Shown: one piece after another, positions 4,829 through 53,169 of the stretch | Position numbering within the stretch: position 1 is the stretch's first letter | Layout: every line of letters begins with the position of its first letter | Assembly (NCBI GenBank): GCA_964532925.1 | Contig: CAZHIP010000003.1 | Span: 644 to 64,643, forward strand | Length of the DNA: 64,000 bases | Source of the DNA: an uncultured Gammaproteobacteria bacterium | GTDB taxonomy: Bacteria > Patescibacteriota > Patescibacteriia > GWA2-47-26 | Direction: 5' to 3' | Translations under genes and position numbers: made by a program | The notes under the pieces: model-generated | Seen by the model: the letters and a program-made list of their open reading frames with translations, nothing else | Database searches by the model: none | Told to the model about the DNA's origin: nothing

Positions 4829-5491
4829 ATGGAAGGCCTCTACGGTATTCACAAAGAGAAAGGGCCAACGTCGCATGACATCGTCAATACATTGCGACGA
4901 ATTACCGGTATTCGCAAGATTGGCCACGCTGGAACACTCGACCCTCTTGCCAGTGGCGTGCTCATTGTTGGTATTGGTCGCGCGTCCACGAAACAGCTCG
5001 ATCAAATTGTAAAGTTCGAGAAAGAATACGTTGCAACTATTCATCTCGGCGAATCAAGTACCACCGATGACGCCGAAGGAGAAAAAACACCCAAACCACT
5101 CAACCTACCGCCAACAAAATCGGCCGTTTTAAAAATACTCAAAACTATGGTTGGTGAGCATGCACAAATGCCTCCCAGCTATAGTGCACTCAAAATTAAA
5201 GGTAAGGCAGCCTACCGTATTGCGCGTGAAGGTAAAATCCCCGAACTAAAACCCCGCACAGTGTTTATCAAAAGCATTACCCTTAAAAAATATCACTGGC
5301 CAACAGCATCTATTCAAGTGGTATGCGGACCTGGCACCTATATCCGTGCCATTGCCCGTGATCTGGGATTACAACTTGGCACGGGAGGGTATCTCACCGA
5401 CCTCATTCGTACCCGAATTGGCTCATACAAACTAAAAAATGCACTCACTCTCGACGAATTTGCAGCCAAGGCAAAAGAACACGCCACATGA
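4829..5491 (+). CDS. truB: tRNA pseudouridine(55) synthase TruB
   Basis: GIHKEKGPTSHDIV...GHAGTLDPLASGVLIVGIGRASTK catalytic-Asp motif of TruB; length 220 aa. Confidence 0.9.
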   Translation: MEGLYGIHKEKGPTSHDIVNTLRRITGIRKIGHAGTLDPLASGVLIVGIGRASTKQLDQIVKFEKEYVATIHLGESSTTDDAEGEKTPKPLNLPPTKSAVLKILKTMVGEHAQMPPSYSALKIKGKAAYRIAREGKIPELKPRTVFIKSITLKKYHWPTASIQVVCGPGTYIRAIARDLGLQLGTGGYLTDLIRTRIGSYKLKNALTLDEFAAKAKEHAT

Positions 5492-31340: not shown

Positions 31341-32465
31341 CTAATCTTGCTTAATCGGCATGATGATATAAAGATGTCGCGCGTTACCCTTGGGAGCCAA
31401 AATACACGGATTAGCGCCGTCAACGATCCTGAATTCAATATCAGTAGATACAAGACTGTTTACTCCCTCGAGAAGATAGCGATAGTTAAAGGTGATTTTT
31501 GTTTCTTCCCCTTTTATTTCTGCAGGCACCGATGTTGCATAATTACCAAACTGCGTATTGCCTGAATCAATCTTCACAATATTGTTTTCTGGATCAATCG
31601 AAAGATGCACATCGTTCACGCCGGTTTTTGAAAACAAGCTTGCCGCTTTAATTGCCTGCACAAAGTCTTTTTTCACCACCACGACCGATGTCTTTGTCTC
31701 TTTAGGAATAATTTGTGTATAGTCTGGGTATTGTCCGTCGACCAAGCGTGAAATAAGCTCTACCCCGCTTCCCTGGAAGGTTACTTGGTTGGGTGAAATA
31801 ACCAATGTTGCTGTGGTATCAGCGCCTTTTTTCTGGTTAAAGATACGAACAAACTCATGGAGTGTTTTTACCGGCACAATCATTGAAGCAACTGCACCCT
31901 CCGAAGTAACCGTACATGGCACCTGTACTTCTGCGAGGCGATAACTGTCAGTGCCGACGAGTTTCATTACTTTTGATTCAGCGTCATACGTAAATAAGAC
32001 ACCAGAAATTTCTGGACGCACTTCACCGGGCGAAACTGTAAACAAAATACTTCCTACTGCTTCGAGCAATAACGGTAAATCGAATTGGACCACCAGCGAA
32101 CCTTCAACATCTGGAAGTAGTGGAAATTCTGATGACGGCATCCCTTTGATTTTTGTCGCACTTTTTCCACAAGCGATTTCGGCACCATCCCCCGTAACCA
32201 CAATATCTATTTTTTCATCTGGCAATACAGACACATAGTCCGCTAATAATTTTGCCGGCAATGTATATTCACCATGCTCTTCTATTTTTGCACGCACTTT
32301 TGCACGAGCACCAAGTTCGAGATTTGTCGCACACAAGACCAACCCATCTTCATCGGTCTTTAAGAGAATATTACTCAGGATGGGAAGATTCCCTCCTCGG
32401 GTTGCAATATTACTCACTACATTGATTCCTCCAACGAGATTATCTTTTGTACAACTTATCCTCAT
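31341..32465 (-). CDS. dnaN: DNA polymerase III beta sliding clamp
   Basis: 374 aa, three-domain clamp pattern, located immediately downstream of dnaA; N-terminus MRISCTKDNLVGGINVVSNIATRGGNLPILSNILL. Confidence 0.9.
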   Translation of the reverse strand: MRISCTKDNLVGGINVVSNIATRGGNLPILSNILLKTDEDGLVLCATNLELGARAKVRAKIEEHGEYTLPAKLLADYVSVLPDEKIDIVVTGDGAEIACGKSATKIKGMPSSEFPLLPDVEGSLVVQFDLPLLLEAVGSILFTVSPGEVRPEISGVLFTYDAESKVMKLVGTDSYRLAEVQVPCTVTSEGAVASMIVPVKTLHEFVRIFNQKKGADTTATLVISPNQVTFQGSGVELISRLVDGQYPDYTQIIPKETKTSVVVVKKDFVQAIKAASLFSKTGVNDVHLSIDPENNIVKIDSGNTQFGNYATSVPAEIKGEETKITFNYRYLLEGVNSLVSTDIEFRIVDGANPCILAPKGNARHLYIIMPIKQD

Positions 32466-32618
32466 AGTCGTGTGTTTGAATCTATTCTTTTAATATATAT
32501 GTAACCAGTAATAGTTCTAGTATAGGAGTGGAAAGCGTGGATAACTGGTTTCTGGTTGATATGTTAAGGCTTTTGCTTGTGGATAGTATGGGAGAGATGC
32601 TCTGCGCGCTTTGTATAA
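32466..32618. promoter_or_regulatory. dnaA-dnaN intergenic region with DnaA-box-like sites and AT-rich tract (candidate oriC segment)
   Basis: gtggataac at 32537-32545 and tgtggatag at 32578-32586 (each 1 mismatch to TGTGGATAA), AT-rich ttcttttaatatatatgtaacc at 32486-32507. Confidence 0.45.
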
Positions 32619-33986
32619 CTACTGGGTAACATATAAACGTTGTTTAATGTGTTCCATATCTTGCTTCAGTTTTTGATCATTTTCCAATCCTCTCCCAATC
32701 TTTGCACAGGCATGGATGGCAGTTGTGTGATCCCTTCCTCCAAGCTCTTGTCCAATCGCGGGATATGAATATTTTAATTCTTCGCGCAACAGATACATAA
32801 TAATTTGGCGAGGGAATGCTAAACGTTGCTCTCTGCTTTTTCCAGCAATTTCGTCGAGATCTACGTCAAAAAATGTCGCAACTGTCTGAATAACATGTTT
32901 TGGGGTGATCGATCGTTTTAAGCTGTTGCTCGCCGGTGTGAGAATTGTTTTTACAAAATCAAGAGTAAGCGGAGTGTTTTTGAGTTGATGAAAGGCAATC
33001 AGTTTATTGAGTGCTCCTTCGAGTTCGCGAACATTGTGGTGAATAACTCCCGCCACATATTGGATTACTTCACTATCAAGTGCATATTGTCGTTCAAAAC
33101 ATTTCTTTTCTAGGATTGCTACGCGGGTTTCAAAGTCTGGTGGGTTAATATCAGCAACCATCCCCCACTCAAAACGAGAGAGGAGGCGCTTTTCCATAGC
33201 ATTGATTTCTTTTGGTGGGCGGTCAGAGGACAGTAAGACTTGTTTGTTTGATTGGTGGAGTGCGTTGAAGGTGTGAAAAAAAGCCTCCTGTGTTTCGTTT
33301 TTACCCGACATAAATTGCACATCATCAACCATCAAGAGATCAACACCACGATAGCGGTCTTGAAATGTTTTTGCTTGGCCAGTTCTCACTGCATTAATAA
33401 AATCCGAGGTAAATGTCTCGGAGGTTACATAGAGAATTTTGGCACTAGGGTTTTGACGCACAATCTCGTTCCCTACTGCTTGGAGTAAGTGGGTTTTACC
33501 AAGTCCGACACCACCATAAATAAAGAGTGGGTTGTAGGCCTCACCAGGTCGTGCTGCAACGGCGCGGGCCGCAGCTGACGCAAGCTCGTTTCCTTTGCCA
33601 ATAATGTAGCTGTCGAACGTGTAGCGGGAGTTTAACCCCCAACGGCTTAATGATTCGCGGTTTGGGGTTGATTCTCGCAGAGGAGCAGATGCGTCGCTTG
33701 GGCGCACGAGACTTATGTTTGTTGGTTGAGGTGGAACAATTGACCCAACATGAAAGGAGAGTTTCTTTACAGTACGATCGGTAAGCTGTTGCAGGCGGCT
33801 TAAAATAGGTGCATGGTATTTCTTCTCAAGCCAAGCTTTGGTAAAATTGTTGGGTACAGAAATAGCGACAATCCCATTCTCCATACTTACGATTGCTGTA
33901 TTTTTGAACCAAGTAGTGAAATTAGCCTTGGAAAGCTGGAGTTCGAGTTCGCTTAACGTGGCTTGCCAAAGTTGTTCAGGGCTCAT
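32619..33986 (-). CDS. dnaA: Chromosomal replication initiator protein DnaA
   Basis: N-terminal MSPEQLWQATLSELELQL, AAA+ Walker A GGVGLGKTHLLQAVGNE, DnaA signature and C-terminal HTH (HTTAIHACAKI); 455 aa. Confidence 0.95.
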   Translation of the reverse strand: MSPEQLWQATLSELELQLSKANFTTWFKNTAIVSMENGIVAISVPNNFTKAWLEKKYHAPILSRLQQLTDRTVKKLSFHVGSIVPPQPTNISLVRPSDASAPLRESTPNRESLSRWGLNSRYTFDSYIIGKGNELASAAARAVAARPGEAYNPLFIYGGVGLGKTHLLQAVGNEIVRQNPSAKILYVTSETFTSDFINAVRTGQAKTFQDRYRGVDLLMVDDVQFMSGKNETQEAFFHTFNALHQSNKQVLLSSDRPPKEINAMEKRLLSRFEWGMVADINPPDFETRVAILEKKCFERQYALDSEVIQYVAGVIHHNVRELEGALNKLIAFHQLKNTPLTLDFVKTILTPASNSLKRSITPKHVIQTVATFFDVDLDEIAGKSREQRLAFPRQIIMYLLREELKYSYPAIGQELGGRDHTTAIHACAKIGRGLENDQKLKQDMEHIKQRLYVTQ

Positions 33987-34119
33987 AGAGTAAGGGTCAG
34001 GGTTTTTCAGAGGTTTTCAGTATAACAGGGTCAAGTTGTCCCCAGGAGTTGATAAAATGTGCACTTCCTGTGTATACTGTGTGCACCATGCATTATAAGA
34101 AGCACTAACTAAAAAAGCA

Positions 34120-34278
34120 ATGCCAAAGCGAACATACCAACCCAAGAAGCGCAAGCATGCCAAAGTACACGGTTTTCGCTCAAGAATGAGCACAAAAACC
34201 GGCCGTACCGTATTGGCCCGCCGCCGCGCAAAGGGTCGAAAAAAGCTCACGGTTTCCAAGCGTACGGTAAAGGTCTAA
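34120..34278 (+). CDS. rpmH: 50S ribosomal protein L34 (below ORF-track size cutoff)
   Basis: ATG at 34120, TAA at 34276; product [52 protein letters not shown] matches the L34 consensus (..[21 protein letters not shown]); classic position upstream of rnpA. Confidence 0.85.
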
Positions 34279-34350
34279 CGAGTGAATATGTGTTGATGAT
34301 AGGCGGATGCGGCACAACGGCTGCGTCCGCCTATTTGTTACCCTCTTTCT

Positions 34351-34692
34351 ATGCTTTCTAAGGAGAATCGTCTTCGTGACGATAAAACTATTGTAAAAAC
34401 GCTCCGCCTTGGTCGCCGTGTAAATCACGATGCGCTTTCTTTGGTTATCAATAAATCAGTCACCTCAAAAACAAAGATCGCGGTGGTCGTCGGGACAAAG
34501 ATTCACAAGCGCGCCGTTATCCGCAATCGGCTCAAGCGTCGCACGCGCGAAGCTTTGCGATTACTCACTCCCCGCTTGCAACCAGGATTTGATGTAGTGG
34601 TGTTTCCGCGCATGCTTGTCGATGAGATTTCTTTTGTTGAATTGCAAAAAATTATTGAAGGTCTTTTTCTAAAAGCACGATTGCTTGTATGA
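34351..34692 (+). CDS. rnpA: Ribonuclease P protein component
   Basis: 113 aa, basic; RNR motif region VIRNRLKRRTREALRL; follows rpmH. Confidence 0.85.
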   Translation: MLSKENRLRDDKTIVKTLRLGRRVNHDALSLVINKSVTSKTKIAVVVGTKIHKRAVIRNRLKRRTREALRLLTPRLQPGFDVVVFPRMLVDEISFVELQKIIEGLFLKARLLV

Positions 34693-34934
34693 GCGACTGG
34701 TTGAAAATTCCAGTGCTTATGGCCATCCGGGTTTATCAAAAAACCCTTTCGCCTGACCATGGATTGTTAAAGATCTTTTACCCGCGCGGGTTTTGCCGGT
34801 TTAATCCATCATGTTCTCAGTATGGTTGCGATGCCATAGAAAAATACGGCGTAATCAAAGGCGGCTTCAAGGCTATTCACCGCATCCTCCGCTGCCAGCC
34901 GTGGAGTAAGGGCGGCAACGACCCCCTTCTCTGA
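34689..34934 (+). CDS. yidD: Membrane protein insertion efficiency factor YidD
   Basis: 81 aa with conserved Cys pattern FYPRGFCRFNPSCSQYGCDAIEKYG; overlaps rnpA stop by 4 nt. Confidence 0.85.
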   Translation: MSDWLKIPVLMAIRVYQKTLSPDHGLLKIFYPRGFCRFNPSCSQYGCDAIEKYGVIKGGFKAIHRILRCQPWSKGGNDPLL

Positions 34935-34940
34935 AACTAA

Positions 34941-34974
34941 AAACACCCCGACGAGTATCGGGGTGTTTTTTTAT
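34941..34974. terminator. Rho-independent terminator (acaccccg-acgagta-tcggggtgt + T8)
   Basis: Hairpin plus T-run directly after yidD; convergent with tig. Confidence 0.65.
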
Positions 34975-34984
34975 TTGCAACTAC

Positions 34985-46921: not shown

Positions 46922-47857
46922 ATGGACATCTTGGGGTATAAGCGCCAATTCCTCGAACACCTAGAGATTGAGAAGAACCGTTCACCCAAGACGGTTCAGA
47001 ATTATGATTTTTACCTCGAGCGCTTTCTCAAGTGGGCAAAATACCCGTCCCCTGCCAACCTGACCGCAGAAGTTGTCCGACAGTTCCGCCTGTGGCTGCA
47101 CCGCCAGGTTGATCGCAATGGTGAACCACTCAAATCAAACACACAGAACTATCACCTGATTGCACTCCGCTCGTTTCTCAAGTTTTTGGCACGACGTGAT
47201 GTAGAAACATTGTCTGCCGAAAAGATTGATCTTGCTAAAGGCGAACAGCGTATTGTGGAGTTTTTGGAAGGTTCTGACTTGGAGCGGTTTCTCAATGGTC
47301 CACTGCAAGGAGACAAAGGACGCACGATTATTGGCAAACGTGATGCGGCAATTCTAGCGCTTCTCTTTTCAACGGGTCTTCGTGTATCAGAGCTAGCACG
47401 ACTCAAGCGCGACGATATTAACCTGAAGCGCGAAGAATTTACGGTGCGCGGGAAAGGGCGGAAGCCGCGCTTGGTATTTGTCTCCCCTGCGGCGCGCATG
47501 ACCTTGCTCGCCTATCTCGAAGCACGCCGTGACGAAGCGGAGTCGTTGTTTGTCCGCCATGATCGAGCAAAACCAAAAGGCGGAGATATTGAACCAGAGC
47601 CAATAACCTCTCGTTCGATTGAACGGCTTGTTGCCCAATATGCCAAGGCTGCAGGGATTACCAAGCGTATTACGCCGCATGTCCTGCGTCACTCGTTTGC
47701 TACTGATTTATTAAGAAACGGGGCGGATATTAAGGCGGTCCAATCGCTTTTGGGGCATGCTTCTATCACGACGACCCAAATTTACACCCACGTAACCGAC
47801 AAGCACTTGCGAGAGACACATAAGAAGTTTCACGGTAAAAAGGGTGGTGGGTCTTGA
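46922..47857 (+). CDS. xerC: Tyrosine site-specific recombinase XerC/XerD family
   Basis: N-terminal SAM-like domain (SPKTVQNYDFYLERFLKW), catalytic box HVLRHSFATDLLRNGADIKAVQSLLGHASITTTQIYTHV with active-site Tyr; 311 aa. Confidence 0.85.
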   Translation: MDILGYKRQFLEHLEIEKNRSPKTVQNYDFYLERFLKWAKYPSPANLTAEVVRQFRLWLHRQVDRNGEPLKSNTQNYHLIALRSFLKFLARRDVETLSAEKIDLAKGEQRIVEFLEGSDLERFLNGPLQGDKGRTIIGKRDAAILALLFSTGLRVSELARLKRDDINLKREEFTVRGKGRKPRLVFVSPAARMTLLAYLEARRDEAESLFVRHDRAKPKGGDIEPEPITSRSIERLVAQYAKAAGITKRITPHVLRHSFATDLLRNGADIKAVQSLLGHASITTTQIYTHVTDKHLRETHKKFHGKKGGGS

Positions 47858-47906
47858 TTTTGGATTAAAAATCTGATATCCTTTGGCCTGTTCAGTCCCC
47901 GCTTAG

Positions 47907-47978
47907 GCCCCTGTAGTTCAATGGATAGAACTCCGGACTTCTAAGCCGGATATGAAGGTTCGATTCCTTCCGGGGGCA
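47907..47978 (+). tRNA. tRNA-Arg (anticodon TCT)
   Basis: Acceptor gcccctg/cgggggc (one G-U), anticodon loop cTTCTAa identical to argU-type loop, T-arm gaagg-ttcgatt-ccttc, discriminator A. Confidence 0.75.
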
Positions 47979-47988
47979 TAGAACATAT

Positions 47989-48264
47989 ATGAAAGAATCT
48001 GGACCACTATTTTTTGCAGCCGAACTCAGTACTCCGCCGACGCTTGATTTGCATGAACGTCGTAGTCAGGATGATCATGAGTTGGGGCACGCCATTGATC
48101 AATTTTTACATGATCACCGGGGTGAAGTCATAAAGATAGTGACGGGTGTAGGCTCTGGGAAGATGTTTGCGCGGGTGCTAAAGATTTTGGAGGCTCATGC
48201 ACTAACCGAGAATGTGCAGCCAGCACAAAATAAAGGAGATATATTGGTTCATGTTGCTGAGTAG
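47989..48264 (+). CDS. Smr-domain protein
   Basis: LDLHERRSQDDHELGHAIDQFLHDHRGEVIKIVTGVGSGKMFARVLKILEAHAL resembles Smr (LDLHG...ALxxFL....gxxxvxIIhGKGtG.Lr..V..wL); 91 aa. Confidence 0.5.
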   Translation: MKESGPLFFAAELSTPPTLDLHERRSQDDHELGHAIDQFLHDHRGEVIKIVTGVGSGKMFARVLKILEAHALTENVQPAQNKGDILVHVAE

Positions 48265-48272
48265 AAAAGTAT

Positions 48273-48347
48273 GGCGACTATAGCTCAATGGCAGAGCACT
48301 GGTCTGTGGCACCAGCTACACGGGTTCGATCCCCGTTAGTCGCCCCA
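48273..48347 (+). tRNA. tRNA-His (anticodon GTG) with encoded G-1 and CCA
   Basis: G-1 (48273) pairs with discriminator C; acceptor gcgacta/tagtcgc, anticodon stem ctggt/accag loop ctGTGgc, T-arm acggg-ttcgatc-cccgt, cca at 48345-48347. Confidence 0.85.
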
Positions 48348-48349
48348 AA

Positions 48350-48385
48350 AGAAAAGCACCTGTTTCGGCAGGTGTTTTTCTTTTG
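48350..48385 (+). terminator. Rho-independent terminator after tRNA-His (aagcacctg-tttcggc-aggtgttt + T-run)
   Basis: Hairpin and TTTTTCTTTT. Confidence 0.6.
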
Positions 48386-48449
48386 GAAACAGTTGACAAT
48401 AGAGCGATTTTGTGGTAGGTTTTGGGGTCCACAACCAAGGAGGACTAGC

Positions 48450-48839
48450 ATGAGTGAGGGTTTCCCGTTTTGTAAGCGGGATCGTAACAACCCGATCGAG
48501 AATGCCTTAATTGGCTATTGCGAGGGGTTGTTTCGCGGGATGAAAGATTCGCGGTGTGTTAGACCCGAGTGCGCGCAAGGAGTGAGTCGTCCTTTGAACG
48601 CACGCCTGCTACGCTTTGAGCAGACCTACGGCAAAGAGGCTGTGGACAAGGTCCGTCTCTATGCTATGCTCAAAGGGAGGAGTACCACGTTCTGCGTTGG
48701 GTGTCAGTTTTTGGACACCGCTGATCGCAGCACGCCTCTGTTCCTTGAACAACTTGCTCGGGAGACTCTTCAACCCGAGTATTACAACAGGCTTCTGGCG
48801 AATTACCAGGAGCTTGTAAGAAAGTTTGGTGGCAGATGA
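48450..48839 (+). CDS. Hypothetical Cys-rich protein, cassette gene A1 (129 aa)
   Basis: ATG at 48450 with aaggagga RBS 7 nt upstream; Cys pairs CKRD...C, CVRPEC, CVGCQ; GC-rich; paralogous to product of 49232-49615. Confidence 0.55.
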   Translation: MSEGFPFCKRDRNNPIENALIGYCEGLFRGMKDSRCVRPECAQGVSRPLNARLLRFEQTYGKEAVDKVRLYAMLKGRSTTFCVGCQFLDTADRSTPLFLEQLARETLQPEYYNRLLANYQELVRKFGGR

Positions 48840-49081
48840 AAACGCAAAAGAGGACGACGACCATAGTCAAGGATCCGTTTCAGGAGATTCTCCTCGAGGA
48901 GGCTGCATCTCTGAAGCGCGACCACCCAGAGGTTTTCGCTGATGCGCAAGCGCTCTCTGCGGAGACGCTCCACGAAGTCGCTCATGCGTGGGCTTTCTCG
49001 CGCGACGATGACCTTAAGTACACGAACCTCGCGTCGCGCACCGCCGACGAGCTCCACACGCTCCTCTTCCCTGAAGAGTAG
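48836..49081 (+). CDS. Hypothetical protein, cassette gene B1 (81 aa)
   Basis: ATGA overlap with upstream gene; paralogous to the short ORF at 49612-49755 (FQ...SLKRDHPEVFA vs FQ...SFRRSYPKVAA). Confidence 0.45.
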   Translation: MKTQKRTTTIVKDPFQEILLEEAASLKRDHPEVFADAQALSAETLHEVAHAWAFSRDDDLKYTNLASRTADELHTLLFPEE

Positions 49082-49105
49082 CGCCACATGCACCGTCCCT
49101 CGCCC

Positions 49106-49147
49106 CGAAGCCCGACCAGTGAAAACTGCTCGGGCTTCTTTCTTTTT
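49106..49147 (+). terminator. Rho-independent terminator, repeat copy 1 (gaagcccga-ccagtgaaaactgc-tcgggcttc + tttcttttt)
   Basis: 9-bp stem, T-run; near-identical to copy at 49853-49898. Confidence 0.6.
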
Positions 49148-49231
49148 ATGCAAGATCTTGACTTTTTGGAGAAAATGTGAGATGGTTTCCTGTTCCCGTC
49201 AACAAAAAACGAACAAGGAACGGAGGTATGT

Positions 49232-49615
49232 GTGCCCCCAACGAATTTAATTCCTCGGAATCACGAGGATGAATTCCAGAATGCATCCAGGGAATGGGTG
49301 CGGGATGTCATAGAATGGCTTCCCGCGGCACCAATCTCGGATGGGGTCTTCGAGGAGATCCTTCTGGAGATTTCCGATTACGTCAGGGAGCTCGAGAGCG
49401 AGCTCGGGCAGGAGACTGTCTGGCGTTGCCATATGTACGCTTCTTTGCGAGGTAGTGGCAACTACCTTAAAGAGGTGTACACTACATTTGACCGAGAAGG
49501 TTCCCCGACACTGCTCTTCCTTGAGAGTCTTCTCAAGGAAAAGATCCCGGAGGAGTTTAAGGAGTTTCAGAGGGAGATGGAACGACCATCTATCCTCACA
49601 GGAGGTAGTAAGTGA
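49232..49615 (+). CDS. Hypothetical protein, cassette gene A2 (127 aa, GTG start)
   Basis: GTG at 49232 after ggagg; shares HMYASLRGSG / SPTLLFLESLLKE / EFKEFQREMER blocks with gene A1 (RLYAMLKGRS / STPLFLEQLARE / EYYNRLLANYQE). Confidence 0.5.
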   Translation: MPPTNLIPRNHEDEFQNASREWVRDVIEWLPAAPISDGVFEEILLEISDYVRELESELGQETVWRCHMYASLRGSGNYLKEVYTTFDREGSPTLLFLESLLKEKIPEEFKEFQREMERPSILTGGSK

Positions 49616-49755
49616 AGAAGGAAGCGTTCCAGCACGCGACTCCACTGGCCCAAGAAGTTGAGTCGTTTCGCCGCAGCTACCCGAAGGTGGCAGCTAAGGT
49701 TTGCAAGGGGGGTCTTCGACATGGAGACTCTTCGAAACCTCTTGCTGATTCCTAA
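49612..49755 (+). pseudogene. Truncated/frameshifted paralogue of cassette gene B (47 aa in frame)
   Basis: GTG start overlapping upstream stop; homology to gene B1 stops at an in-frame TAA while a +1 frame continues about 24 more codons. Confidence 0.35.
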
Positions 49756-49852
49756 GGGGTTCAGCCTTCTTGCGGCCCTGGGTGAGAGTGAGCTGGATCG
49801 CGCACTGCGATCTTAGGCCTCACTTCTCGCTCCCCGCACTGTTACATCCGCC

Positions 49853-49898
49853 GCGAAGCCCGACCAGTATCAATGACTCGTCGGGCTTCTTTCTTTTT
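49853..49898 (+). terminator. Rho-independent terminator, repeat copy 2 (cgaagcccgac-cagtatcaatgactc-gtcgggcttc + tttctttttt)
   Basis: Same stem sequence as copy 1 with different loop. Confidence 0.6.
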
Positions 49899-49930
49899 TA
49901 TCTGCCTGTTTTGGTATACACTCAATATCT

Positions 49931-50548
49931 ATGGCAGGAGAAGCAACGCATATTATTTTAGCGGATCGCATACTCGCTGATCGCGGTACGCAGTATAATC
50001 GGCGGGATTTTATTGTGGGAACGGTTTTTCCCGACATTCGGTATTTGGGAGACCTCGATCGAGATGTGACCCATCTGCGCGAAATTTCGATGGAGCATGT
50101 GCTCAGCGAAACAGATTCATTTATTGCGGGAGCGAAGTTTCATAGCTTGGTCGATAAAGTACGGAATGATTTTATTAAAACAGCAGGCATGTATGATCTG
50201 TGTCCTCCGTTTTTGTATGATCAACAGTCGTTGAAATTTTTGGAAGATGAATTATTTTATCCGGAATACGGGTTGTGGGCGGATGCCTTGAAATATTTTG
50301 AGCAAGTTCGCGAAGTGCCGGTAGCCTACCCAGTTTCCGAAGAGATTGTGGCTCAGTGGTATGCAATTATACGTGGGTATGTGGCAGTACCGCCCAATGA
50401 AGTTTCGCGTTTGCATTTACTTGTTGCAGAGGGGTACACCAGAGAGGCAGTAATTTTGATTAATGCGTACATCGAAGAGCTGCGCAAAAACAAAGCAGTG
50501 ACAGATCTCATGAAAGATTTCTATACACAGTTCCCTACTCTCATTTAA
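49931..50548 (+). CDS. Hypothetical protein (205 aa)
   Basis: ATG at 49931; His/Asp-rich N-terminus MAGEATHIILADRILADRG...FIVGTVFPDIRYLGDLDRDVTHL suggests a metal-dependent hydrolase-like fold but no firm motif; followed by hairpin terminator at 50549-50585. Confidence 0.45.
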   Translation: MAGEATHIILADRILADRGTQYNRRDFIVGTVFPDIRYLGDLDRDVTHLREISMEHVLSETDSFIAGAKFHSLVDKVRNDFIKTAGMYDLCPPFLYDQQSLKFLEDELFYPEYGLWADALKYFEQVREVPVAYPVSEEIVAQWYAIIRGYVAVPPNEVSRLHLLVAEGYTREAVILINAYIEELRKNKAVTDLMKDFYTQFPTLI

Positions 50549-50599: not shown

Positions 50600-51166
50600 T
50601 TACCAGCTCCCAATACGGTTGCGACACGCCTTCCAGTCGGCAAGGAGTTTTTGTTGTGTCGCGTCGCCGCTCATTGTGTTACTGGTTGGGTTGGTAAAAC
50701 CAGTGCGGCCAGAAGAGTTCTGGAAATTCGCCCACTCTTGGCAGCAAGCGCCAGCGGAACCAGAGCAGGTTGTCACAGCATCGAGCATGTTTTCTTCCAT
50801 GGTATTGATGAGTCGGAATTGCAAGAATCGCGCAATGCCTAATGATGAAAACAAGAAGACGGCACCAATAGATGATTGGATCAGAATCTTTTGTGCTTTC
50901 TTGATTGGCTCCGGTGATCCTTGGGCGTTGAACCACAGCACCCCCGCGTAGACAATACGAATAATAAAGATAAGACCAACCACGCTTAACGCACCGGCAA
51001 TAATGCGTGCGGCAACAATACGCGGGTCGAGTGCGGTGCCGGTCGCCACCAAGCTTGCAAATTGAGCAGCTTGCGATGCGCCACCAATAATCTCGTTCGC
51101 GAGTCCTTGATCGATTGGACCAGCGGCAAGTGCTTGGGGGAAGAGTAATGTGAAGAGGTGAAACAT
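50600..51166 (-). CDS. TrbC/VirB2-pilin-like small secreted membrane protein, paralogue 1 (C-terminal Cys-rich tail)
   Basis: Conserved core RIIAGALSVVGLIFIIRIVYAGVLWFNAQGSPEPIKKAQKILIQSSIGAVFLF (TM - YAGxxW - G - KKAx - TM) shared with nine upstream paralogues. Confidence 0.5.
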   Translation of the reverse strand: MFHLFTLLFPQALAAGPIDQGLANEIIGGASQAAQFASLVATGTALDPRIVAARIIAGALSVVGLIFIIRIVYAGVLWFNAQGSPEPIKKAQKILIQSSIGAVFLFSSLGIARFLQFRLINTMEENMLDAVTTCSGSAGACCQEWANFQNSSGRTGFTNPTSNTMSGDATQQKLLADWKACRNRIGSW

Positions 51167-51169
51167 ATT

Positions 51170-51769
51170 TTAGGGGGTGATCCGACCGCTTACTCCTTCG
51201 AAAGGCGCTGCACCTGGTGGTGCGGTGTATTGGAAATTACCACCCGAGCTTTGTGCGCCAAAGAGAAGGCCGCGCAATACAAAGTTGGCGAGAAGATATG
51301 ACATCAAGAGAATCAGAAGTCCGATAGATGCGCGCACAATACGTTGTCGAGATTTTTTGACTTGATCGCTATCGCCGGCGGCAGTCATCCAGCGAATACC
51401 TGAGTAAATAACCATACCCAAGAAGATGGTTCCGGATATGGCAAAAATAATATAAATGACACGACCAACGCGCGCAGGGAGGTTGGCGGATGCGGAATCT
51501 ACTTTGTATCCCCCGCTCGTGAACAGCGACTTCGTGGTTGCTTTGAGGGTTGCATTGGTGCCATTTGCCTTTTCTATAGCTTTATCTAAAGCTGCTTGGT
51601 CAGCAGCGTCGGCGGCGGAAGTTGCAGCGGCACCCGCTGCTCCAAAGGCATCTTGATTCAGGGAGTCAATTTCACTAGTATCTTGTGCATGACTTGTGTT
51701 GAGTGCTACCAAAGATAGCGTTGCAACAAAGAACGGTATCGCAAGAAATTTTATAAAGGGTTTGTTCAT
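51170..51769 (-). CDS. TrbC/VirB2-pilin-like small secreted membrane protein, paralogue 2
   Basis: Signal peptide MNKPFIKFLAIPFFVATLSLVALNTSHA; Ala-rich variable region; core VIYSGIRWMTAAGDSDQVKKSRQRIVRASIGLLILLMSYLL. Confidence 0.55.
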   Translation of the reverse strand: MNKPFIKFLAIPFFVATLSLVALNTSHAQDTSEIDSLNQDAFGAAGAAATSAADAADQAALDKAIEKANGTNATLKATTKSLFTSGGYKVDSASANLPARVGRVIYIIFAISGTIFLGMVIYSGIRWMTAAGDSDQVKKSRQRIVRASIGLLILLMSYLLANFVLRGLLFGAQSSGGNFQYTAPPGAAPFEGVSGRITP

Positions 51770-51773
51770 ATGG

Positions 51774-52289
51774 TTATGGCGTAACGCTTTTTTGCAGGAA
51801 CGAAGTGATAAAAGTGGTAATCGCCCACGCCGCAAGAATTATGGATAATCCGATAACTGCTTTGGAGGCAATGCCTTGGGCTTTTTTTACGGATTCATCA
51901 TTGCCACCCGCGGTTGTCCAGAGATATCCTGCATAAAATAGAAGTGCGAAGAAGAGAAAGCCGATGACTGTGAGGACGAATTTAATAATGGCAACAACGT
52001 AGGCGCGGACGTCGTTACTTGGCACACAGGTTTCAACTCCTTGCGCATTGGTCGAGCAGGTCATGTCGCTCGTGGGCGCAGTATACCCGGCGCCTTTTAG
52101 GAATGCGCGGGTAACCGAAGAGTTTGGGGTTTGGTCACGTTGGGCGGCGGGTACACTGAAATCTCCGTTAGCATTCCGCACAGCCTGCTCGCCATCAATT
52201 ACTTGCATCGGTTCGTCTCCTGGAAATTGTTGCGCATATACTGGTAGCGCACACACAAGTCCTATGAATAAAAACAATAGGACTTTCAT
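51774..52289 (-). CDS. TrbC/VirB2-pilin-like small secreted membrane protein, paralogue 3
   Basis: Signal peptide MKVLLFLFIGLVCALPVYA; core LFYAGYLWTTAGGNDESVKKAQGIASKAVIGLSIILAAWAI. Confidence 0.55.
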   Translation of the reverse strand: MKVLLFLFIGLVCALPVYAQQFPGDEPMQVIDGEQAVRNANGDFSVPAAQRDQTPNSSVTRAFLKGAGYTAPTSDMTCSTNAQGVETCVPSNDVRAYVVAIIKFVLTVIGFLFFALLFYAGYLWTTAGGNDESVKKAQGIASKAVIGLSIILAAWAITTFITSFLQKSVTP

Positions 52290-52293
52290 TGTA

Positions 52294-52683
52294 TTATTGT
52301 TGCGCATAGAAGAGGATGAATTGAGTAATTGCACCTGCAAGAATGGTGATGATGAGACCGATAGAAGCACGGGTGAGGATTTTGGTTGCCTTTTTGATGT
52401 CTTCATCATCGCCTCCGGCGGTCATCCAAACGTATCCGGCGTAGGCAATAAGTGCGAAAAAGAGAAAGCCAGTTGCAACGAGTGCGATACGGACAATGGA
52501 ACCAATGAGCGTAGCGAGTGCCACCGAGCTATCCCCGCTTGCGCGAGTATACCCCGCACCTACTTCTGCAATATTTTTTAGTCTAAAGCGCAAGGAGTTC
52601 GTGGTCGTCATTTGATCGGTAGCAGCAAGTACTCGCATGGGGGCGAGTATCGCAGCTACCGTAAGTATGGAGCGTCGCAGCAT
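52294..52683 (-). CDS. TrbC/VirB2-pilin-like small secreted membrane protein, paralogue 4
   Basis: Signal peptide MLRRSILTVAAILAPMRVLA; core IAYAGYVWMTAGGDDEDIKKATKILTRASIGLIITILAGAI. Confidence 0.55.
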   Translation of the reverse strand: MLRRSILTVAAILAPMRVLAATDQMTTTNSLRFRLKNIAEVGAGYTRASGDSSVALATLIGSIVRIALVATGFLFFALIAYAGYVWMTAGGDDEDIKKATKILTRASIGLIITILAGAITQFILFYAQQ

Positions 52684-52686
52684 AGA

Positions 52687-53169
52687 TTATGAGTCGGTAG
52701 CAGGAGTCTCAGTAATTACTGGTGGTGTTGTGGTTGATGATTGGAATGCCGAGTTGATAACGCGATCAACCACAAAGGTGGTGATGGCATAGGCAGCGAC
52801 CACAATCACGAGACCAATCGTCGCACTTTCAAGAATATTTTTTGACTTTTTAATTTGGTCTTCGGTGCCCCGCGCAGTCATCCACAAGAATCCGGCGTAG
52901 ACCATCAAAACACCAAAGATGACACCCATAAGCACAATGAGTGACTTGATCAGCTGACCAATAATAACTTCGGGCGGTACAGCTCCTTCCGGAAATCCAG
53001 CTTGCTTGGCTACTGGTGTAAACATGTTCAAAGATCCTTTGAGTCCTGTTTTTGTGGTAGTAATCTCATCTTGCAGGGTTGGAGAGGTGCTGGGTGCAGC
53101 ATGAACGGTCGCCACCGGTGTTGCGAAGAATGTGAGACCCAGGATTGCAGCAAAGAGAGCCTTTTTCAT
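52687..53169 (-). CDS. TrbC/VirB2-pilin-like small secreted membrane protein, paralogue 5
   Basis: Signal peptide MKKALFAAILGLTFFATPVATVHA; core MVYAGFLWMTARGTEDQIKKSKNILESATIGLVIVVAAYAI; Thr/Pro-rich C-terminal tail. Confidence 0.55.
   Translation of the reverse strand: MKKALFAAILGLTFFATPVATVHAAPSTSPTLQDEITTTKTGLKGSLNMFTPVAKQAGFPEGAVPPEVIIGQLIKSLIVLMGVIFGVLMVYAGFLWMTARGTEDQIKKSKNILESATIGLVIVVAAYAITTFVVDRVINSAFQSSTTTPPVITETPATDS

Follow-up and report, generated by a model that had tools for sequence, protein, structure and literature searches.

Most gene cassettes of integrons lack promoters of their own. In Patescibacteria, the candidate phyla radiation (CPR), tiny genomes come, to our knowledge, with few recognised mobile elements, toxin–antitoxin systems or defence systems. 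In Bacteroidales, a rAID-1 array may comprise as many as 31 single immunity genes, homologous to known immunity families, together with a context-specific, XerD-like recombinase, skewed GC content and repetitive intergenic sequences (Ross et al., bioRxiv 10.1101/471110). Here we describe a locus on a 64,000-nucleotide stretch of contig CAZHIP010000003.1 (the window), from a genome that belongs to the Patescibacteria, as its NYN-domain protein shares 57–72% identity with its counterparts in metagenome-assembled genomes of Uhrbacteria-like and other Patescibacteria. We show that the locus is a two-slot array of autonomous operons, each made of a gene A and a gene B, in a hot spot between a tRNA-His gene and a conserved gene for a 205-residue protein. 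An original prediction, made from the letters of the window, had seen here a GC-rich islet with two copies of a two-gene module, each with its own terminator, downstream of two tRNA genes, a tyrosine recombinase gene and an Smr-domain gene; the flanking genes, the two-module islet and the terminators were all found where it had put them.

The islet (48393–49899) consists of two promoter-to-terminator units, each with a TTGACA-type promoter, a Shine–Dalgarno sequence, a gene A, a gene B translationally coupled to it and an intrinsic terminator that is nearly the same in both:

48393–48421, plus strand: promoter of module 1, read from the sequence, with TTGACA (48393–48398), a 17-nt spacer and an extended −10 box, TGG-TAGGTT
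48450–48839, plus strand: A1, family A, 129 residues, isoelectric point 9.2, with AAGGAGG 7 nt upstream of the start
48836–49081, plus strand: B1, 81 residues, isoelectric point 4.95, translationally coupled to A1 through an ATGA overlap
49090–49147, plus strand: 3′ element 1, an intrinsic terminator with a C-rich leader, a hairpin (49107–49138) and a T run
49158–49186, plus strand: promoter of module 2, read from the sequence, with TTGACT (49158–49163), 17 nt and GATGGT
49232–49615, plus strand: A2, family A, 127 residues, GTG start, isoelectric point 4.6, with GGAGG 5 nt upstream
49612–49816, plus strand: B2, frameshifted (+1, in a run of six G at 49707–49712), with an intact form of 67 residues and isoelectric point 9.8
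49838–49899, plus strand: 3′ element 2, with a hairpin (49855–49889) and a T run

The promoter sequence of module 1 is unique within the window. The 14-nt arm GAAGCCCGACCAGT is confined, within the 64 kb, to the terminators of the two modules, with 4 matches against 0.28 expected by chance and none of 100 shuffles reaching 4, so that the duplicated terminators with a common stem seen by eye are borne out at both module ends and nowhere else. Their hairpins fold at −22.7 kcal/mol (element 1, z = −4.9) and −21.4 kcal/mol (element 2, z = −3.7). Public gene calls give A1 as a protein of 183 residues that starts inside the tRNA-His gene (48288–48839); the evidence supports the ATG at 48450, after AAGGAGG, and hence 129 residues, not 183.

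The two modules are related to each other in both genes. For A1 and A2, BLASTP gives E = 1e-5 and the Smith–Waterman score is 63 against 26 ± 4.4 for shuffled sequences, with none of 2000 shuffles reaching 63, and the homology claimed from a few common blocks thus holds under a formal test. For B1 and B2, after repair of the frameshift, the score is 40 against 22.7 ± 4.3 (8 of 2000 shuffles reach 40), a similarity that is real yet weak. Gene B had been described as short and overlapping or abutting gene A, as is the case: B1, at 81 residues, overlaps A1 by ATGA, and B2 starts at 49612 where A2 ends at 49615. Gene A had been described as about 128 residues long and Cys-rich, and of this the length stands (129 and 127 residues) while the cysteines are not a conserved property. 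A1 as a Cys- or Zn-binding protein was rejected, with two of its six Cys missing from an ortholog that is 83% identical and a single Cys in A2. The suspected frameshift in B2 is real, in that the run of six G is a run of five in the relative L007, which encodes an intact B2 of 67 residues, and deleting one G from the B2 of the window yields a protein that matches that of L007 apart from one residue. Three further assemblies spanning this part of the locus (L002, L004, L005) also carry the allele with six G.

A and B are real genes, and within each module type they are under purifying selection, with ratios of non-synonymous to synonymous substitution rates (dN/dS) of 0.10–0.17. The ortholog of A1 is 83% identical (dN/dS 0.17), that of B1 84% (0.11–0.12) and that of A2 in L003/L007 89% (0.17), and the comparison for B2 gives 0.10. 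In a six-frame test the only frame besides the sense frame with a low dN/dS was the antisense one whose third codon positions coincide with those of the sense frame, and it is interrupted by 3–8 stops; the remaining frames gave a dN/dS of about 0.9 or higher, and the sense frame of A1 is the only one that is both under purifying selection and without internal stops. Antisense reading frames over B1 and A2 were considered as genes and rejected as non-coding (dN/dS, or omega, of 1.5–2.1), among them a frame of 116 residues on the minus strand at 48803–49153 with an omega of 1.5. Such long antisense frames stay open because the GC content at third codon positions (GC3) is high in A and B.

The array has conserved borders on both sides:

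48274–48347, plus strand: tRNA-His (gtg), found by ARAGORN, which is conserved and bounds the variable locus on the left
48345–48386, both strands: bidirectional terminator after tRNA-His, a perfect hairpin of 18–19 bp with A/T runs on both sides
49931–50548, plus strand: gene for a protein of 205 residues, the conserved right border, standing to the right of the array in the window, L001 and L008

The hairpin after tRNA-His folds at −28.8 kcal/mol (z = −7.6). The 205-residue protein has only a weak Pfam match (Zn_dep_PLPC), and its counterpart in L008 is 88% identical with a dN/dS of 0.07. Related contigs were retrieved by exact-protein look-ups; their shared genes are 82–92% identical in DNA with synonymous divergence (dS) of 0.3–1.0, and all of them start at the 3′ end of tRNA-His and/or end in or just before the 205-residue gene. 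The arrays that they carry differ:

Window (the same in L002, L004, L005 and L006): modules M1 and M2, between tRNA-His and the 205-residue gene
L001: tRNA-His, a gene for a membrane protein of 149 residues, M3, M1, the 205-residue gene
L003/L007: tRNA-His, M4, M2
L008: tRNA-His, the 149-residue gene, M5, M6, the 205-residue gene

At least six anciently diverged A–B module types (M1–M6) thus occur at the tRNA-His locus, in varying combinations and slots, among genomes of a single genus-level lineage. M1 occupies slot 1 in the window and slot 2 in L001, M2 follows M1 in the window and M4 in L007, and the left end of the variant arrays in L001, L003/L007 and L008 is the 3′ end of tRNA-His. This is the outcome of the comparative genomics proposed with the original prediction: the site holds different modules in relatives, and the islet is not uniformly conserved. 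The 149-residue gene, which encodes an N-terminal membrane anchor, lies directly past tRNA-His in L001 (106–555) and L008 (143–592) and is not in the window or in L003/L007; its two copies are 66% identical in DNA, with a dN/dS of 0.09.

Similarity between these arrays follows the limits of the modules. With the M1 ortholog it sets in exactly at the −35 box (48393) and stops where the T run does (49146), and at the junction of M4 and M2 it begins at 49090, just past the stop of the preceding B gene. The 3′ ends of M1–M4 are 77–89% identical though their coding regions cannot be aligned at the DNA level, and among M1, M4 and M5 the identity is 75–83% at the 5′ end, with coding regions at background level. 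What is conserved is, on the 5′ side, some 55 nt of promoter and leader and, on the 3′ side, a C-rich hairpin terminator some 60 nt long. All modules have a TTGACA or TTGACT −35 box and a 17-nt spacer, most have an extended −10 box of the TGn type, and the slot-2 promoter block AAGATCTTGACTTTTTGGnGAAAATGTGAGA is common to M2 and the unrelated module M6 (L008). The loops of the 3′ hairpins differ in length (4, 6 or 7 nt) and in sequence, and M5 and M6 end in hairpins different from those of M1–M4. Rfam has no match for the conserved 3′ and 5′ elements, a search of metagenomes for the pattern of the 3′ hairpin returned 3 unrelated perfect palindromes, from one sample and with no A genes, and a scan of genome contigs with the 205-residue neighbour found nothing.

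In the reading that we prefer, modules would come, go and replace one another as whole units, from promoter to terminator, and the simplest route for such exchange would be homologous recombination in which the conserved ends and the flanks serve as the matching sequence. No dedicated integrase would be required, and the XerC encoded nearby would be an ordinary chromosome-dimer resolvase. The architectural part of this reading, a variable array of two-gene cassettes, we consider highly probable. As the main rival to it, the same arrays could be described as the birth and death of chromosomal paralogs, with A–B a regulatory, adaptor or chaperone pair that stems from an old tandem duplication of which lineages keep different subsets, and with the conserved non-coding ends reflecting shared regulation (promoter, leader and terminator), not mobility. 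Purifying selection on every module is in line with this description, as are the age of the modules (20–34% protein identity, in genomes compared at dS 0.3–1.0) and the lack of any association with phages, plasmids or viral contigs or of a match to a defence family. We nevertheless find it rather unlikely, given that M1 changes slot between the window and L001 and that M2 pairs with either M1 or M4; differential loss alone would require an ancestral array of at least six modules. Moreover, the non-coding ends are far better conserved than the coding regions, B2 has been freshly inactivated, which would be unusual in a needed housekeeping pair, and the family was not found at the syntenic loci of 80 other Patescibacteria species.

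A tyrosine recombinase gene and two tRNA genes upstream of the array had been taken as signs of acquisition:

46922–47857, plus strand: xerC, with Pfam Phage_integrase (E = 6e-41) and a SAM-like N-terminal domain, part of the context and outside the cassette array
47907–47978, plus strand: tRNA-Arg (tct), found by ARAGORN, 67.9 bits with Rfam tRNA
47989–48264, plus strand: Smr-like reading frame of 91 residues between the two tRNA genes, Pfam Smr E = 2.9e-4 and 21.3 bits, under the gathering cut-off of 25.7

With NCBIfam, the xerC product scores 225–245 bits against the XerC, XerD and XerA models (XerC 244 bits; XerA_Arch 225 bits, cut-off 220), and with the integron integrase model TIGR02249 it gives 130 bits, in two separate stretches, against a cut-off of 265. 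As a synteny sample we used 80 loci from other Patescibacteria species, fetched via the NYN gene. S15 and NYN are adjacent in 79 of them, 55 have a XerC homolog no more than 6 kb from S15–NYN(–PNPase), and in 40 it is directly adjacent and divergent, as in the window; in the closest relatives XerC is then followed by tRNA-Arg(tct) and tRNA-His(gtg). On this synteny, XerC is the phylum-wide housekeeping Xer, in a conserved arrangement XerC|S15–NYN–PNPase, and no island integrase, and a housekeeping Xer found near S15–NYN in 55 of 80 species loses its value as evidence of acquisition. Direct repeats of the 3′ ends of tRNA-His or tRNA-Arg, for which the original prediction had proposed a search as possible attachment sites, have no second copy in the window with up to 3 mismatches. 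With XerC in core synteny and no repeats of tRNA 3′ ends, the inference from integrase plus tRNA to an island fails: the locus shows neither the attachment repeats nor the island-specific integrase of a tRNA-targeted island or prophage. What stands of the idea of acquired cassettes beside tRNAs and an integrase is the variable, cassette-like locus; an integrase-borne island and a recent import do not.

The same recombinase could be given a larger part, in an integron-like platform where the 3′ hairpins, with their 14-nt inverted arms and short spacer, would be the sites at which the sole Xer inserts, excises and reorders cassettes. It is encoded 0.5 kb upstream, on the strand of the array, the cassettes M1–M4 all end in the same imperfect inverted repeat and cassettes change slot between genomes, in an architecture that recalls the rAID-1 arrays of Bacteroidales. 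We think this very improbable, however, as the recombinase is the core Xer of the phylum and falls below the integron-integrase model, and two tRNAs and one further gene lie between it and the array. The GC-rich stems are directly followed by T runs, as in canonical intrinsic terminators, the loops vary in length (4, 6 and 7 nt) and sequence in a way unfit for a fixed crossover spacer, the hairpins of M5 and M6 differ, there are no attC-type cores and no attI-like site beside xerC, and the metagenome hairpin scan gave only its 3 unrelated palindromes. A wider version, with an undescribed conflict system of two proteins and a new fold, confined to Patescibacteria and laid out as a multi-allelic array whose 60-nt hairpin ends would be recombination handles, possibly for the single Xer, and hence an integron-like platform of these ultra-small bacteria, strikes us as a long shot.

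The space between tRNA-Arg and tRNA-His is, in the genomes compared, a second small insertion hot spot. It measures only 2–112 nt in the relatives L022, L050 and L054, so the Smr-like gene is itself an insertion in the lineage of the window; other relatives have 0.8–2.6 kb of differing genes there. Of the Smr-domain gene that had been named at this place, the reading frame is present and the Smr assignment stays below threshold, at 21.3 against 25.7 bits.

The GC-richer composition that had been noticed after the tRNAs was confirmed by sliding-window GC and by GC3 as a modest shift. The islet has a GC content of 0.533 against 0.481 ± 0.024, in the top 0.5% of windows of equal size, and the GC content is equally high at just one other place within the 64 kb. 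GC3 is 0.577 in A1, 0.720 in B1 and 0.586 in A2 against 0.481 ± 0.059 for 61 other reading frames, B1 lying above all 61. The same holds for all modules in all genomes examined, including the distant genome L009 (A 0.53–0.66, B 0.65–0.79, flanking genes 0.37–0.49), and the raised GC3 is kept in orthologs diverged to dS of about 0.8. As it is high in every genome and persists at such divergence, the raised GC3 is intrinsic to the A and B genes and does not point to recent import; the composition does not serve as a sign of acquisition. This bears on a third possibility, in which the array would be what is left of a prophage or other integrative element with tRNA-His as its target, with A–B as moron-like or superinfection-exclusion cargo. 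The site immediately 3′ of a tRNA gene, the raised GC and the promoters and terminators that each unit owns, as morons do, all agree with it. We give it hardly any credence, however: the tRNA 3′ end is not repeated, no phage or mobile-element gene lies between tRNA-His and the 205-residue gene and no PHROG matches, searches of IMG/VR, INPHARED and PLSDB found no relatives, and the GC3 bias is family-wide and kept at dS of about 0.8.

A and B alike appear from our searches to belong to undescribed families that are restricted to Patescibacteria. A1–A6 are mutually related (pairwise E values of 1e-5 to 1e-11, protein identity 20–34%). A single-sequence search with A1 among 5.8 billion proteins returned A1 and one ortholog only, a profile of four A sequences recovered its own members only, and an exhaustive HMMER search that ran an A profile through 1.84 billion cluster representatives gave only 13 clusters at E ≤ 1e-3, all of 98–197 residues. 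The C-terminal core of family A reads G..V..C.LYHvLiGS(8-11)FDFxGxDSI..FLE.LA..P, and one member has two copies of it. The 80 syntenic loci sampled from other species of the phylum hold no family-A gene, and neither A nor B proteins significantly match an entry of Pfam, NCBIfam, PADLOC or PHROGs. A PDB profile search with family A gave nothing below E = 0.05, and no relatives turned up among IMG/VR viral contigs, INPHARED phages or PLSDB plasmids. The AlphaFold2 model of A2, from an alignment of 14 sequences, is a confident one (mean predicted local distance difference test score, pLDDT, 85; predicted TM score 0.79) with six helices and a two-stranded sheet, and Foldseek finds no neighbour for it, the best E values being 3.2 against PDB and 0.9 against BFVD. 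Judged against these two databases, family A is a candidate new fold or family.

One lead, suggestive to the eye, came from RNase III, to which the A profile aligns ungapped over 64 residues (Aquifex RNase III residues 4–67, E ~0.5), such that the invariant FD-x-G-D of the A core (A2 residues 54–108, window 49391–49555) falls on the LEFLGD signature. We rejected family A as RNase III at this E value: hhalign gives a probability of 1.8% (P = 0.027), the A2 model does not superpose, the sole RNase III entry returned by Foldseek is a Dicer chain (E = 5.2, TM 0.20), and family A lacks anything equivalent to the C-terminal half of the RNase III domain, which in the Aquifex enzyme carries the second acidic pair, D107/E110.

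Gene B accompanies gene A more widely than at this locus. Context was looked up for six of ten distant A clusters, and a small gene of 64–88 residues follows A in 11 of the 12 module types with context examined (M1–M6 and the six distant clusters); in the distant clusters P0010, P0013, P0014, P0016 and P0019 a gene of the size of B lies at −4 to +27 nt from A. A and B overlap by ATGA in M1, M2 and M4 and also in L009 and L099, with one promoter and one terminator per pair, and the distant pairs, too, have promoters and terminators of their own, amid ordinary genes. An A–B pair or a lone A is found next to housekeeping genes (ClpB/SIMPL in L009, a ribosomal-protein region in L011, RNase HII in L099), which is what the birth and death of chromosomal paralogs would lead one to expect. 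Over 10 pairs, the net charge of B tends to be lower where that of A is higher (Pearson r = −0.83, p = 0.003; Spearman rho = −0.61, p = 0.06), with extremes at A1 (+5.5) with B1 (−7.1) and A2 (−13.3) with B2 (+4.6). Because of translational coupling, conserved adjacency and anticorrelated charge, we infer that A and B would form a physical complex and act as a heteromeric pair.

The B proteins have a loose C-terminal motif, h-x-N-L-A-[ST]-x-E-G-h-x-x-L, that is visible by eye only. A concatenated A+B profile search for relatives of B found A proteins only, and the single-sequence AlphaFold2 model of B1, which is helical (pLDDT 70), gave nothing below E = 0.5 when compared with PDB by Foldseek.

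As to what the pair does, A–B might be a small conflict module, akin to toxin–antitoxin or immunity systems, in which case the frameshift in B2 would leave A2 an orphan. Among possible functions a conflict role seems the likeliest to us because the locus is multi-allelic and variable, the expression units are self-contained and one partner has decayed; on the sequence evidence we nevertheless advance it tentatively and somewhat doubtfully. The combined proposal, an array of swappable A–B cassettes with a conflict role like that of toxin–antitoxin or toxin–immunity pairs, we regard as evenly balanced.

Several observations weigh against these proposals. No homology or fold match to a toxin, antitoxin, immunity or defence protein was found (Pfam, NCBIfam, PADLOC, PHROGs, PDB sequences, Foldseek), and no DNA-binding domain in the style of type II antitoxins was detected in any A or B. 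The common ancestry of the B proteins is plausible rather than formally shown, with leave-one-out hidden Markov models of B recovering 1 of 11. One distant A homolog, P0017 (L011–L013), stands alone without a B gene; at L011 it occupies 5001–5354, in a ribosomal-protein region broken up by several unrelated genes, one of them for a T4SS_pilin protein. The anticorrelation of charges is driven largely by M1 and M2, and GC3 is high across the whole family. Since the genomes compared differ at dS 0.3–1.0, turnover is on a between-species timescale, and birth and death of paralogs could account for it without active exchange of cassettes; the exchange itself we infer from the arrays, with no recombination junction directly observed.

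Two further features of the surroundings deserve mention. Directly past the 205-residue gene, on the minus strand at 50600–53169, lie four to five tandem, diverged paralogs of T4SS_pilin (PF18895). Some distance upstream are dnaN (31341–32465, minus strand) and dnaA (32619–33986, minus strand), followed by 1 kb (33987–34984) without a reading frame of at least 150 residues, and the cumulative GC skew has its minimum near 32.5 kb; the replication origin is probably in this dnaN–dnaA region (31341–34984), about 15 kb from the cassette locus. Inside dnaA, Rfam AsdA ("antisense RNA of dnaA mRNA") matches 33438–33518 on the plus strand, exactly at the gathering score of 52 bits, which may reflect only the coding conservation of dnaA and not a real antisense RNA.

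Compared with known systems, the locus shares different traits with each. Like integron cassette arrays, it has tandem units that end in imperfect inverted repeats, an order shuffled between genomes and a tyrosine recombinase near by; unlike them, it has no IntI-type integrase, no attI and no attC cores (the R/L cores RYYYAAC/GTTRRRY are not visible in the alignment of 3′ elements), each unit has a promoter, and the repeats are T-tailed terminators. Clusters of polymorphic toxins and orphan immunity genes likewise hold multi-allelic tandem paralogs at one locus, with conserved junctions that could support recombination, whereas A and B are accompanied by no large secreted toxin gene and carry no toxin or immunity domain, signal peptide or secretion-associated domain. 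With the rAID-1 arrays the locus has in common small, rapidly diversified and co-directional genes downstream of a Xer-family recombinase, skewed GC, repeated intergenic sequences and a content that varies. The differences from rAID-1 are that the XerC of the window is the core Xer of the phylum, not a context-specific one, that there are two two-gene units without a match to immunity families, and that the GC content is skewed upward where that of rAID-1 is skewed downward.

The likeness to type II toxin–antitoxin operons extends to two small genes with a 4-nt overlap under their own promoter and terminator, to diverged paralogs in a variable locus, to a frameshift in one partner and to complementary charges that suggest a complex. 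Against it, A and B have no similarity to a known toxin or antitoxin, with no helix–turn–helix, ribbon–helix–helix, AbrB or Phd/YefM domain recognised, and one distant A homolog has no partner gene; of the marks of such operons we thus find the adjacent, co-transcribed small genes, and neither a known toxin fold or family nor the DNA-binding domain of an antitoxin. Membership in the type II toxin–antitoxin systems or in rAID-1 is not established, for lack of the toxin and antitoxin domains and of the recombinase that define them. If A–B is a toxin–antitoxin or immunity module, it would add a family specific to the CPR and illustrate how cassettes can be shuffled with no integrase devoted to the task; should it be no more than a pair of paralogs with a regulatory role, its interest is local. 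The exchange of whole units of a two-protein family between related genomes would be an entry point to accessory diversification in episymbionts, and the locus offers a testable, CPR-specific family of gene pairs with cassette behaviour and possibly a new fold. Among described systems, then, it is a variable array of small two-gene modules from undescribed protein families, nearest in architecture to type II toxin–antitoxin operons and to the rAID-1 arrays.

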